DNA of 64,000 nucleotides from positions 46,145-110,144 of the forward strand of contig CATGLK010000002.1 in the NCBI GenBank assembly GCA_949538735.1, given 5' to 3'. Below the pieces are notes generated by a model. The model saw only the letters and a program-made list of their open reading frames with translations, made no database searches and was not told where the DNA came from. Shown here one piece after another: positions 16,568-19,157 of this stretch (position 1 is the stretch's first letter; each line of letters starts with the position of its first letter). The DNA is from an uncultured Clostridia bacterium (GTDB taxonomy: Bacteria; Bacillota; Clostridia; TANB77; CAG-508). A program made the translations under genes and the position numbers.

Positions 16568-19157
16568 ACAAGCAATTGAAAGGAAGATAAAAATAGAAGC
16601 GCAAAGAAAACAAACAATAAAACGACCAGTTTTAATTGCAGCAGTTGGATATATAATAGGGATAATAATGGGGCTATACTTTAAATACAGTGTAGTCCTT
16701 TTGTATATACCAGCAATTGCAATTTACAAAATACTAAAAATAAGATGTGTCCCCAAATGGACAAAATGTCCAAAAAGAAACGTCCCCAATGGACATAGAT
16801 ATTTTAGATATGTAAAGTTAATTTTAAATTCAAAAGTTATTATGATAATTATAATTATTTCTAGCATTTCAAATGGAATTGTTCTATTCCAAAATCAACA
16901 ATATGATAATTTATATAAGAACATCAAAAACTTGTCAGGAAAAGGCATTGTCGTAAGTAATAAAGTAGAAAAAGAATACAAGAATAAGTACAAGGTAAAG
17001 GTTACAAATATAAATGGAAATTCTAAATACAAAGCTACTTATTTATTTTTAAGAATAGATAAAAAAGATACAAAAGAACTAAAATATGGCGATGAAGTTA
17101 CTTTTTCAGGTGATTTCATTGAGCCAACAACAAGGCGAAATTTTGGCGGTTTTAACTATAAAGAATACTTAAAAACTGTAAAGATATTTGGAAGTATAAA
17201 TGTTGATAATTTTAAAGTAACACAGCATAATAAAACAAATATATTTTTTAGTTTTTCAAATAGTTGCTTTTTAAAATTTGAAAAAGCGATAGATAGTGTT
17301 CTAAAAAAAGAACAAGCTGAGATTTTGAAAGGGATATTATTAGGCGATAGTTCCAATATAGATGAAGAGATAAAGGAACAGTTTAGAATTAGCAGTATTT
17401 CACATGTATTAGCGATTTCAGGTATGCATGTATCTTATTTAGTTATAGGTATTAATTTATTTTTAAAAAGAAAAGCAGGGAAGAATAAAACCAAAGTTAT
17501 TATAATTTTATTTTTAATTTTCTATATGTTTATAACAGGATTTTCGCCTTCTGTTGTAAGAGCATGTGTAATGGAAATTTTAGTTCTAATTGCAGGTTTA
17601 ATTCATAGAAGAAATGATACAATTAATTCACTAAGTTTGTCATTAATTCTAATTCTTATTTATAATCCATTTTTAATTATGAATATTGGATTACAGTTTT
17701 CATATATCGGGACAATTGGGATTTTATTTTTTCATAATAATGTTCTTAAAATTTTAAAAGATATAAAGATAAAAAATAAAAAGTGGAAATATAGAATTAG
17801 TCCAAAAGTGATTAAAATTACAGATAGAATAAAAGAAATTTTGGCTGTTACTATATCTGCTCAAATAGCGATAATACCTATTATGATATATCATTTTAAT
17901 GTATTTGGAATATATTTTTTTCTTACGAATTTAATTGTAAGTGTAATTATAGGTCCTATTATAATTTTAGGAATTATAACAATTTGTAGTTATATGATTA
18001 TCCCACAAATTGCAGGGATTATAGCTGTTAGTTTATCATTTTTAATTCAAAGTCTAATTTTCATTTCAAACATAGGAGAATTACCATATTCTAAAATTTA
18101 TATCAAAACTCCTTCAATATCTCAAATTATTATATATTATGTAGCAATTGTCGTTTTGAACTTCTGTTATGGAATATATAACTCAAAAATAATAAGTACT
18201 ACTCGGAAGAAGGGCAAGAAATTTAATTGCATTATTTAAATATAAATTCAGACAAAAGAGAAATAGGTATATATCAATAGTTTTAATTTCAATAATGATT
18301 TTTTCAATATTTAAATTTATTCCAAAAGACTTAAAGATTCATTTTGTTGATGTTGGGCAAGGTGATTGCACATTTATAGAAACGCCATATGGCAAAACAA
18401 TACTAATAGACGGTGGAGGCAGTAGTTCAAAGGATTTTGATGTTGGTAAAAGTACTTTGCTTCCTTATGTTTTAGACAGGGGATATACAAGTATTGATTA
18501 TGTTTTCGTAAGCCATTTTGACCAAGACCACGTGCGGTTCTATCCTACATTTGCTACGAGAAATAAAAGTAAAAAATATAATAATTGGAAAGCAATTTGA
18601 AGATTCGGAAAATTATCAAAAATTTTTAAAACTAGTAAAAGAACGAAATGTAAAAGTGCATATAGTAGAAGCGGAGAAAAGGATTAATATAGAAAAAGAT
18701 TTATATTTTGATGTGTTGTGGCCAAGCTCAAAACAAGTGATTAATGAAAATGGTATTAATAATAATTCTTTGGTTTGCAAAATGATGTATCAAAAGTTTT
18801 CTATGCTGTTTACTGGCGACATAGAAGAAGTTGCTGAAAAAGCTATTGTAGAAAAATATAGAAATAATAATATATTGAAATCCACTGTTTTAAAGGTTGC
18901 ACATCATCGGTTCTAAATCTTCTACTACAGATGACTTTTTAGAAGCAGTAATGCCTAAAATAGCTGTAATTGGAGTAGGGGAGAATAATTTGTTTAAGCA
19001 TCCAGCTGAAATAACGATAGAGAATTTAGAGAAGAGAAAGATTTCAATTTACAGAACAGACCAAAATGGAGAAATAACTATAAAAACAAATGGAAAAAAG
19101 ATAAAAGAAATAAGTGCGACTAAAAATAGTTGCAAAATAGATAAAGGAGTGATATAA
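16560..19157 (+). pseudogene. comEC: competence protein ComEC/Rec2, split into four ORF pieces by three +1 frameshifts (extra C at 18204, 18535, 18908); N-terminal start unclear; carries an in-frame repeat insertion
   Basis: DUF4131, competence domain (SHVLAISGMHVSYLV) and metallo-beta-lactamase domain (HFVDVGQGDC, SHFDQDH, KVAHHGS) in successive frames 0/1/2/0. Deleting one C at each site gives one continuous ~830-aa ORF. Confidence 0.7.
16736..16797 (+). repeat. GTCC/GGAC-array repeat (subfamily L) inserted in-frame in the comEC 5' region
   Basis: GATGTGTCCCCAAATGGACAAAATGTCCAAAAAGAAACGTCCCCAATGGACA. Near-identical copies at 29034 and, reverse-complemented, at 43303. Encodes RCVPKWTKCPKRNVPNGHR inside a TM region. 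Confidence 0.7.

Follow-up and report, generated by a model that had tools for sequence, protein, structure and literature searches.

What is a GC-rich, peptide-coding island doing within a membrane protein? The question is posed by the comEC gene in a stretch of 64,000 nt from an uncultured Clostridia bacterium (GCA_949538735.1, contig CATGLK010000002.1, positions 46,145–110,144; hereafter the window). A first-pass annotation had marked a 57-nt repeat at 16736–16797 as inserted in frame between the transmembrane helices of ComEC, had listed near-identical copies elsewhere, and had judged that, with its GTCC/GGAC dyads, it resembled a set of tandem operators for some dimeric DNA-binding protein no less than a miniature inverted-repeat transposable element (MITE). 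As detailed herein, the segment is likely to be a non-autonomous dispersed repeat resembling repetitive extragenic palindromes (REPs), and to belong to a Y1/HUH transposase of the RAYT (REP-associated tyrosine transposase)/TIRYT type.

The open reading frame (ORF) concerned encodes ComEC, with the Pfam domains DUF4131 and Competence found in all homologues. In the comEC frame (ORF 16668–18239), the repeat specifies the peptide RCVPKWTKCPKRNVPNGH, followed by an arginine at 16797–16799. Homologous proteins (P numbers) were aligned, and for three of them the DNA of the locus (L numbers denote collected loci) was compared as well. Genome MGBC161913, which shares 94–97 % nucleotide identity with the window over ~20 kb and is therefore conspecific or nearly so, has a 54-nt unit at identical junctions (L003). 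In P0003 (L092, 80 % identity), these junctions enclose a 96-nt composite, ordered as head, palindrome, inverted loop motif, palindrome, loop motif and two tails, whilst the element in P0002 has a different tail. In P0004–P0007 (L091, 69–72 % identity) the element has degenerated to 69 nt, and neither GTCCCC motif is intact. At this position P0008 and P0009 (58–61 % identity), which are the closest outgroups, display just KSKIKPN/YINKIK, and more distant orthologues have an unrelated K-rich loop. As comEC of the outgroup lacks the segment, it represents an insertion and not native sequence, as the first-pass annotation had held.

The opposite proposition, that this is native ComEC sequence with intergenic look-alikes arising by chance or from comEC itself, is almost certainly wrong. 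Distant orthologues do possess a loop of similar length (~20 aa, K/R-rich), but one unrelated in sequence, and the DNA of the segment is 96–98 % identical to intergenic copies in the window, with at least 90 further copies elsewhere. Moreover, the 400 nt around the insert contain seven substitutions between the window and L003, every one of them within or at the edge of the element. These changes match variants common in other copies, a pattern suggestive of gene conversion or re-templating; the copy at 43309, which is identical in the two genomes, shows no such excess. Judged from these alignments, the comEC segment is an old insertion, later rearranged or decayed, which persists with module rearrangements in lineages whose ComEC is 69–95 % identical to that of the window. 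In a low-confidence AlphaFold2 (AF2) model (pLDDT 60), the insert forms a coil at residues 50–64 of the 545-aa query, between helices 35–49 and 65–105 and ahead of the beta-rich domain; the loop, which connects helices 2 and 3, is probably cytoplasmic by the positive-inside rule. At 54 nt, stop-free, and encoding a basic, Cys/Pro-rich loop at a position where relatives too have basic loops, the copy in comEC is most readily viewed as a passenger that the protein tolerates.

The segment is one member of a dispersed family. A scan with the exact 29-mer GGACAAAATGTCCAAAARGAAACGTCCCC, using one genome per species, returned at least 90 stretches in at least 16 species-level metagenome-assembled genomes (MAGs), labelled as uncultured Clostridia, Clostridium and, in one case, Bacilli, and derived from mouse and other animal guts; MGBC161913 alone holds at least 30 exact-core copies. 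Hidden Markov model (HMM) searches of the collected loci add further copies with one to few substitutions, and the 29-mer has no match among viral contigs, giving no sign of phage carriage. Across 94 distinct aligned copies, information content is zero outside a 54-nt block that extends from AGATG to ~9 nt past CGTCCCC, with random sequence on both flanks. It follows that the element is 54 nt rather than 57 nt long, and that its bounds in comEC had been drawn a few bases too wide on either side. The right end is a variable module, tandemly repeated in some copies, its forms including AAATGTCCC (22 copies), AATTGGACA (14 copies), AATGGACA, AATTTACCC and others. The great majority of copies (111 of 123) are singletons, with few inverted pairs.

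Within the window, the two further copies that had been reported do indeed exist, and the window copies taken as inverted arms are 96–98 % complementary over 47–52 nt. The 13-mer GGACAAAATGTCC occurs three times, as opposed to 0.07 times expected from shuffles, and in this DNA of 29 % G+C the hexamers GTCCCC and GGGGAC each occur nine times (0.8 and 2.3 expected). The motif A(A/G)G-N2-4-YGTCCC is found at 11 distinct places, with 18 overlapping regular-expression matches compared with 0.9 in shuffles. A further property of the family is its coding capacity, as the consensus is free of stop codons in six frames; this openness is seen in 56 of the 94 copies, against 10 of 20 000 composition-matched shuffles and 33 of 20 000 random 54-mers from the window. 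Because the unit is 54 nt long and open in this manner, its insertion in comEC added 18 residues and left the frame intact. All three forward frames are used in ORFs: frame 1 in comEC, frame 2 where, in two species, the element bridges murT and gatD in a single MurT_C–GATase_3 ORF (L049, 6021–7640; L064, 279–1910), and frame 3 in L057, where it lengthens the N-terminus ahead of radA. In L053, murT and gatD are separate, overlapping genes (~3281–3657).

With regard to internal structure, the three reported dyads are all present in the comEC copy: GTCC 16749–52/GGAC 16759–62 with an N6 spacer, GGAC 16759–62/GTCC 16768–71 with N5, and GTCC 16782–85/GGAC 16791–94, again with N5. Dyads 1 and 2 are features of the whole family; the third depends on the variable right-end module, which in approximately one-third of the aligned copies is a direct GTCCC and not an inverted GGAC, and so it does not hold as a family feature. 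The element consists of two tandem units, AAGATGTGTCCCC-AAATGGACA and AAGAAACGTCCCC-AATGGACA, with AAATGTCCA between them, and is thus built from two direct loop motifs (AAGATGTGTCCCC and AAGAAACGTCCCC), a TGGACA arm after each, and a TGTCC arm in the middle. Across sister subfamilies, the two direct GTCCC(C) motifs are fixed, whereas the central palindrome covaries by compensatory change (GGACA/TGTCC, GGCAA/TTGCC, GCGACT/AGTCGC); its loop is encountered in both flip (AAAA) and flop (TTTT) forms in the HMM search of collected loci. Symmetric variants fold into strong hairpins. Compensatory change in the palindrome together with fixed GTCCC motifs is what a substrate recognised as a hairpin leaves behind, whereas invariant half-sites would not; the alternating GTCC/GGAC pattern is therefore one of hairpin arms plus a conserved GTCCCC loop motif. 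An operator array, in which a dimeric transcription factor would bind the dyads and regulate neighbouring genes (the comEC copy being either incidental or regulatory), would account for three dyads with 5–6 bp spacers and for half-sites that start ~10 bp apart, but accommodates neither a variable third dyad nor a palindrome that covaries whilst GTCCC stays fixed.

The association with a transposase comes from searches by tblastn with IS608, IS200 and E. coli RAYT sequences, which gave weak matches (E 0.03–0.1) that led to a gene flanked by the repeat. In four species, precisely this element stands on both sides of an ORF of 266–269 aa, as inverted copies whose AGATG ends point toward the gene. 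One of these loci, L010 from MGBC161913, is on the contig of comEC, about 125 kb away. The ORF matches Pfam Y1_Tnp at 53.7 bits, and its best NCBIfam model is REP_Tyr_transpos (67 bits), the IS200 model scoring 18.7 bits. Both signature motifs, HuH (NHVHL) and Y---NP ((R)YIHQNP in the L010 ORF), are invariant in the two family alignments (A5 and A6). Among PDB entries, a family profile matches E. coli TnpAREP (4ER8) best; a phmmer search of the PDB with the enzyme as a single sequence yielded no meaningful match, such that profile and fold searches were needed. An AF2 model built from an alignment of database proteins (pLDDT 82.7) has 4er8_A as its top Foldseek match (E 3.5e-6, target-normalised template-modelling score 0.70), followed by the TnpA proteins of IS608, IS200 and ISDra2.

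At 256–269 aa, the enzyme is considerably longer than the 165 aa of 4ER8, and the AF2 model places the excess in a C-terminal helical domain formed by the last 60–70 residues (~200–260). A helix-turn-helix (HTH) in the L010/L057 protein, which has no significant Pfam HTH match, may be inferred from GTTKTQIARVTGINRKIIERA-type sequence (shown for L010). The probable cognate gene is single-copy and chromosomally fixed, and encodes a TnpAREP-like core with this HTH-like domain. A paralogue in L056, 35 % identical, matches Pfam HTH_11, HTH_8 and HTH_7 in its C-terminal domain, and is flanked by a different inverted repeat, GGGACGGAGCTTTTTTGTCTCATTTT, whose GGGAC head resembles the window repeats at 11582, 30244 and 59584. 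At least two enzyme paralogues, L037 and L056, are found in the MAG BRZ_LB__bin31, and a separate repeat family goes with each. Database homologues number 2584 at E ≤1e-5; the few that are named appear as 'transposase [Clostridia bacterium]' or 'REP element-mobilizing transposase RayT', and many lie on ~1 kb contigs, as expected if assemblies break at flanking repeats.

The gene order mreB/radical-SAM gene/small ORF/Y1_Tnp/radA/disA is kept in L010 and in relatives with 58–62 % identity (L094–L097), in which GGGGAC-bearing inverted repeats flank the gene, although with partly different palindromes; those of L094, L096 and L097 span 37–44 nt at 81–86 %. Only 7 + 54 + 12 nt separate the transposase gene from radA in L010, making co-transcription with DNA-repair genes possible. 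Between the upstream repeat and the transposase start, a hairpin, AAAAAGTATAGCAA...TGCTATACTTTTT, is conserved in all species examined, and may be a regulatory or terminator element for the gene. A metagenome scan with the divergent terminal inverted repeat (TIR) of L096, TAGGCATGGGGACTGTCCCC, gave no matches.

Similar repeats accompany more distant enzymes. Amongst 64 metagenomic homologues (35–61 % identity) for which both flanks were available, the best flanking inverted repeat exceeded the 99th percentile of controls, made by re-pairing flanks, at 23 loci. GGGGAC was present in 36 of the 64 best repeats, as GGGGACAG or GGGGACGG, and GGGAC(G/A) in 44. The typical repeat pairs a locus-specific stem with a conserved loop, GGGGACG(G/T)TT, as in GGACACAA-GGGGACGTTTT-TGTTGTGTC and TGTCAA-GGGGACGGGGT-TGTTGACA. 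The 3′ half of the element, when reverse-complemented, takes a like form in variants with the AATTGGACA tail, TGTCCAATT-GGGGACGTTTCC-TTTTGGACA, and the plan of unit 2, a variable stem with a conserved loop, is thus the one that recurs in the flanks of distant homologues. In addition, the motif variant AG[AG]-N2-3-YGTCCC defines 319 distinct units in 732 kb, comprising the window and loci collected by exact core match; arms of at least 6 bp are paired at 42 % of these units, versus 19 % in re-paired controls, and form distinct stem families (GTCCAAA, GCCAAAA, GTTTTTA).

From these features a sequence of events can be proposed by analogy with E. coli TnpAREP and with IS608 TnpA of the IS200/IS605 family. 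The enzyme would bind the hairpin of the element in single-stranded DNA, recognise the GGGGAC(G/A) motif, cleave nearby and rejoin ends via a 5′-phosphotyrosine link, such that copies could be seeded or replaced without target-site duplication; one of them would have landed among the codons for the ComEC loop that joins helices 2 and 3. This specific enzymology can be regarded as fairly probable. Recognition of the motif by a protein, as suggested by the first-pass annotation, is likewise probable, the candidate being an HUH enzyme, whose characterised relatives act on hairpins of single-stranded DNA, in place of the dimeric regulator then envisaged.

The genomic setting of the copies bears upon further alternatives. 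With genes approximated as ORFs of at least 100 aa, the majority of copies are intergenic, and their orientation relative to neighbouring genes is evenly divided (39 same, 38 antisense). Typically, the right end overlaps the stop codon with which a convergent gene ends, or comes within 0–8 nt of it (43307–43309 in the window being an example); in other copies it sits 12–24 nt 5′ of a start codon, just before the ribosome-binding site (RBS). Some copies fall between cistrons, 4–17 nt past the upstream stop codon, and others within 5′ untranslated regions (UTRs) or inside ORFs. The neighbouring genes are unrelated housekeeping genes. The many copies ahead of start codons would suit operators, and the HTH-like domain of the enzyme, with the Pfam HTH matches of L056, makes duplex binding conceivable; nevertheless, equal orientations, the placement of copies within operons, after convergent stops and inside ORFs, and the disparate nature of the neighbours speak against regulation, and when added to the covarying palindrome render the operator array distinctly improbable.

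A role for the host at the level of RNA or DNA structure, for example as a 3′-end stabiliser, attenuator or nucleoid-protein site, with movement by the enzyme being secondary, has also to be considered, as functions of this kind have been proposed for the REPs of E. coli. Copies do occur between cistrons and in UTRs that are transcribed, both 5′ and 3′; hairpins of symmetric variants are strong, and the core is highly conserved whilst flanks are 67–80 % identical, albeit in loci picked by exact core match. The enzyme gene is, furthermore, single-copy and syntenic in the manner of a housekeeping gene, as one survey describes for RAYTs (PMC5581495). However, copies favour neither orientation with respect to transcription, folding of the common form is weak, and the element has no counterpart in Rfam (gathering scores in the window being reached by the glmS ribozyme and a tRNA alone). 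A site-specific role for any one sequence is also argued against by near-identical strains holding different repeat families at one site. Specifically, window positions 11536–11612 and 12220–12283 and L003 positions ~540–590 and 1215–1300 are orthologous intergenic sites occupied by different GGGAC-repeat families, which, in genomes 94–97 % identical, differ in stem and agree in loop motif. This suggests cassette-like replacement at fixed positions, and a primary host function is improbable.

Occupied and empty orthologous sites were found in four comparisons between related species. No target-site duplication is apparent in these four pairs or in the 94 aligned flanks, although two of the pairs (L059/window and L049/L053) carry extra sequence changes that blur where exactly insertion took place. 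AGAT stands at both junctions of the comEC copy, a feature that is not general among copies. The suggestion of a MITE was apt in so far as the element is short, dispersed, AT-flanked and polymorphic between relatives; some copies even show short imperfect terminal inverted repeats, ATGT(GT)CC ... GGACAT, and this genome does contain a true MITE-like element, whose terminal inverted repeats measure 51 nt. If the repeat were a classical MITE that an insertion sequence (IS) with a DDE transposase had given rise to and mobilised in trans, it should nonetheless display what is missing here, namely a shared flank, target-site duplications and consistent terminal inverted repeats, and around one-third of copies end in a direct module. 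No IS with these ends was seen in ~730 kb of loci, the Y1/HUH gene alone being consistently bounded by the element. A DDE-type MITE was consequently rejected, and this origin is highly improbable.

Several observations weigh against assignment to a RAYT-type transposase. The movement and cutting of the element by the enzyme are argued from analogy, and the NCBIfam REP_Tyr_transpos score lies below its curated cutoff (67 versus 80 bits). The canonical REP tetranucleotide GT[AG]G is absent from either hairpin foot of the consensus, the abundant asymmetric form folds moderately (z about −3), and the second hairpin arm is missing in approximately one-third of copies. Copies show no orientation bias relative to genes, which might have been expected from strong lagging-strand targeting combined with a strong gene-strand bias. 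Finally, the copies that flank the transposase gene could reflect the commonness of the element alone; this is itself unlikely, as they occur in four species, on both sides and in inverted orientation, and a paralogue has its own repeat.

Coordinates of the comEC copy, its relatives in the window, and the loci compared with it
Feature	Locus	Coordinates	Strand	Details
Repeat copy in comEC	Window	16743–16796	+	54 nt, in-frame; sequence AGATGTGTCCCCAAATGGACAAAATGTCCAAAAAGAAACGTCCCCAATGGACAT
Head/loop motif 1	Window	16742–16754	+	AAGATGTGTCCCC; motif scan A[AG]G-N2-4-YGTCCC
Central palindrome	Window	16758–16772	+	TGGACAAAATGTCCA; 6-bp stem and 3-nt loop; folding
Unit-2 hairpin	Window	16767–16795	+	TGTCCAA arm, loop, TTGGACA-type arm; DNA fold
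Conserved loop of unit-2 hairpin	Window	16775–16787		AAGAAACGTCCCC; reverse complement GGGGACGTTTC
Second copy	Window	29035–29090	+	Intergenic, just 5′ of RBS/start of cdaA-like gene; tail module duplicated to ~29096
Third copy	Window	43309–43362	−	Abuts TAG stop (43307–43309) of upstream DapB_N/DAP_DH_C-domain ORF, antisense
Sister-subfamily copy	Window	12223–12278	+	Shared architecture, palindrome TGGCAAAAAATTGCCA; between convergent genes
Sister-subfamily inverted dimer	Window	39086–39159		Near-perfect 74-nt palindrome; dG −39.8, z −14.7
Related GGGGAC-loop hairpin	Window	27844–27884	+	TTTTGGGTGTTTTTGGGGACAGACCTAAAAAGCATCCAAAA; in-frame in pyrimidine-nucleoside phosphorylase gene, ORF 27633–28961
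Three tandem 36-nt hairpin units	Window	42064–42172	+	Loop GGGACAGGCC; related family
Two adjoining related hairpins	Window	11540–11612	+	GGGAC loops
Inverted pair of related hairpins	Window	3899–4006		GGGGACAGTCC loops
Related hairpin	Window	30229–30267	+	GATGTTTTT-GGGGACGAAGC-AAAAACATC
Related hairpin	Window	59569–59607	+	GATGTTTTT-GGGGACGGAGC-AAAAACATC; loop resembles repeat flanking L056 paralogous transposase gene
comEC main frame	Window	16563–18239	+	Listed ORF starts ATG 16668; conserved coding from ~16563; tblastn with P0008
Further comEC segments	Window	18208–18534, 18533–18907, 18909–19106	+	Metallo-beta-lactamase domain; tblastn
Flanked transposase gene	L010 (MGBC161913)	Left copy 4170–4223; ORF 4333–5133; right copy 5141–5194		54 nt, 100 % complementary
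Flanked transposase gene	L057	Left copy 5026–5076; ORF 5151–5960; right copy 5978–6028		51 nt, 98 %
Flanked transposase gene	L037	Left copy 1508–1561; ORF 1644–2453; right copy 2470–2523		54 nt, 89 %
Flanked transposase gene	L042	Left copy 1924–1971; ORF ~2087–2869; right copy 2888–2936		24–28 nt arms, 93–96 %
Hairpin upstream of transposase gene	L010; L057; L037; L042; L096	4254–4294; 5110–5150; 1588–1630; 2002–2042; 2384–2426		AAAAAGTATAGCAA...TGCTATACTTTTT
Occupied/empty site	L010 vs L037			Between radA and disA
Occupied/empty site	L059 vs window	Window ~57136		Adjoins ylbF-like gene
Occupied/empty site	L049/L064 vs L053
Occupied/empty site	L069 vs L062

The comEC gene is itself unusual in organisation. 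No ATG, GTG or TTG is present upstream of the first transmembrane helix; the first frame segment covers 16563–18218, and the metallo-beta-lactamase portion is divided between three further segments, with a Pfam Lactamase_B match on 18295–18600. The main frame is under purifying selection (dN/dS, the ratio of nonsynonymous to synonymous rates, of 0.16–0.27), as is every one of the further segments (0.07–0.41). A truncated ComEC ending in ...NCII recurs in P0001–P0003, whilst P0004, P0005 and P0007 (69–72 % identical) end in ...NCTIQI and P0006 in ...NSII; in L092 and L091 the frame is broken at comparable positions. A dead pseudogene is thus the less likely reading of the four segments, which have the look of a gene conserved in split form or dependent on frameshifting. 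Directly downstream of the comEC remnants is a HicA/HicB-like toxin–antitoxin pair (19159–19752), which is conserved in L091 and L092.

Related repeats also enter other genes of the window. The pyrimidine-nucleoside phosphorylase reads SGEILD[VLGVFGDRPKKHPK]IIVDKHSTGG, the insert separating the N-terminal helical bundle from the a/b domain, and this hairpin is probably the 'first' in-frame insertion that the first-pass annotation implied. The BofA ORF (38827–39237) reads through the 74-nt sister-subfamily palindrome: the BofA domain occupies residues 11–67, and ~70 further residues run through the repeat, constituting either a repeat-derived C-terminal extension or an annotation trap. The first of the tandem units at 42064–42172 overlaps the end of a purine/uridine phosphorylase-family ORF (41388–42095). 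The third copy of the element precedes a terminator-like hairpin and is adjoined by a tRNA-Met gene (43406–43482).

Beyond the repeat family, the window contains an unrelated MITE-like element of ~407 nt (23524–23930), with 51-nt terminal inverted repeats that are 98 % complementary. An extra copy in MGBC161913 (L003 4102–4531), at a site matching window ~15095, makes this element polymorphic between near-identical genomes. A tandem duplication of ~1.43 kb (32720–34520, 81–96 % identical) carries pilin-like genes with N-terminal methylation motifs, and a third related pilin-like gene is located at 44300–45661. Together with comEC and the ylbF-like gene, these indicate that competence and pilus functions are well represented in the window. 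A glmS ribozyme (41084–41236) lies upstream of glmS (39162–41033, minus strand). In one collected locus, L058, positions 1–144 encode the C-terminal 48 aa of an IS200-type transposase (48 % identical to Salmonella IS200 TnpA); this fragment is at the contig start, ~200 nt from a copy of the element.

If the segment is a repeat of the flanked transposase, a puzzling GC-rich, peptide-coding island in a membrane protein becomes explicable as a by-product of a transposase-linked repeat system, one with a definable suggested substrate of variable stem and GGGGAC loop. It would also provide a clean multi-species example of the least understood RAYT class (TIRYT/Group 1) together with its dispersed repeats, in uncultured gut Clostridia. 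Such repeats can add residues, extend termini and fuse adjoining genes with frames intact, and ORF extensions and odd Cys/Pro/Lys-rich insertions in these MAGs should be annotated with caution, as they are repeat-derived. A more far-reaching interpretation is that this is an uncharacterised, productive REP-like system of the Group 1/subclass 2.1 RAYTs, which have been reported without REP association, with a variable-stem, GGGGACG-loop substrate. Its enzyme, encoded right ahead of radA–disA, would then both seed copies and exchange repeat cassettes at fixed sites, in keeping with the differing families at shared sites of strains 94–97 % identical and with the comEC-locus substitutions that all lie in the element. 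This is rather doubtful; if true, however, its repeat units would have evolved their six-frame openness, and would thereby be able to colonise coding sequence and reshape loops and termini of proteins as well as the joints between genes (comEC, pdp, BofA and MurT–GatD).

How, then, does the element compare with known systems? With the IS200/IS605 family it shares a Y1/HUH fold in the enzyme, hairpin-containing substrates and a lack of target-site duplication. It differs in that the enzyme scores far better on the RAYT model than on the IS200 model, the gene is single-copy and syntenic, and the whole repeat-bounded unit is not seen elsewhere; unlike in IS200/IS605, no conserved target tetranucleotide was identified for the element. 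Rickettsia palindromic elements (RPEs), compared here by description, are small repeats kept in frame as extra peptides in unrelated proteins (Ogata et al. 2000, as reviewed in PMC10969869), and this in-frame behaviour is the only trait in common: RPEs are ~100–150 bp, differ in architecture and occur in alpha-proteobacteria, whilst a cognate Y1 gene can be identified for the present repeat, which measures 54 nt. Some RPEs have been classed as CGTC-tagged REPs without a dedicated transposase (PMC3733652). As described there by Di Nocera et al. (2013), the latter consist of CGTC followed by an 8–9 bp stem with A/T at its first two positions, a 4–5 nt loop and a CCA tail. This class was rejected, because CGTC (ACGTCCCC) here lies inside a 13–17 nt loop and not at the stem foot, and there is no CCA tail.

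Resemblance to REPtrons is closer. In both cases the repeats are short, palindromic and mostly extragenic, arranged as singles, inverted dimers and module mosaics; a cognate Y1 gene is flanked by inverted copies, each paralogue has its own repeat family, and inheritance is vertical. REPs too are documented inside genes, at times in frame (PMC3733652). The two diverge in that the conserved motif here is in the loop or head (GTCCCC), with no GT[AG]G at the hairpin foot, that most copies are singletons as opposed to REPIN doublets, and that the enzyme has an extra C-terminal domain and a host in Clostridia instead of Proteobacteria.

The nearest counterpart is the TIRtron. Di Nocera et al. (2013; PMC3733652) define TIRtrons as RAYT-like genes, encoding TIRYTs, that are bounded by long inverted repeats and not by canonical REPs; many of these repeats contain GGGGWSAS, and some are also dispersed through the genome in moderate numbers, with S. 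maltophilia and K. versatilis as reported cases. According to Quentin et al. (2018; PMC6006769), TIRYTs constitute TnpAY1 subclass 2.1, are long, possess a C-terminal HTH and a Y---NP motif, have no canonical REPs adjoining, and are equated with RAYT Group 1. That group occurs in Clostridia, with flanking 16-mers averaging ~12 occurrences genome-wide per replicon, and RAYT genes in general are single-copy with housekeeping-like inheritance, according to Bertels et al. (2017; PMC5581495). In the present system, the protein has the Y1/HUH core with HuH and class-2 Y---NP motifs and exceeds E. coli TnpAREP in length by an HTH-type extension at its C-terminus; its gene occurs once, in a constant position and between long terminal inverted repeats, and the flanking repeat doubles as a dispersed family. 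The reverse complement of its head motif, GGGGACAC, fits the published GGGGWSAS, and is present at the gene-proximal end of the L057 TIRs as well as in the comEC copy; L010 has GGGACAC, one G short, and GGGGACGG of distant homologues departs from the consensus at position 7. On each feature compared, the system thus matches the TIRtron/TIRYT definition, the assignment being by features rather than by the clustering or HMMs of the original authors. Differences reside in the hosts, which here are uncultured low-GC gut Clostridia, in the presence of at least two paralogues in one MAG, each with its own repeat family, in a repeat best characterised by its variable stem and conserved GGGGACG-type loop, an account not met with in the parts of this literature consulted, in abundance (one MAG of ~1.4 Mb or more contains at least 30 copies with the exact core, above the average of ~12 16-mers per replicon for Group 1), and in copies that are stop-free in six frames and lie in frame within genes. 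The variable-stem, conserved-loop substrate, the paralogue-specific repeats within one MAG, the six-frame openness and the cassette turnover may be previously undescribed.

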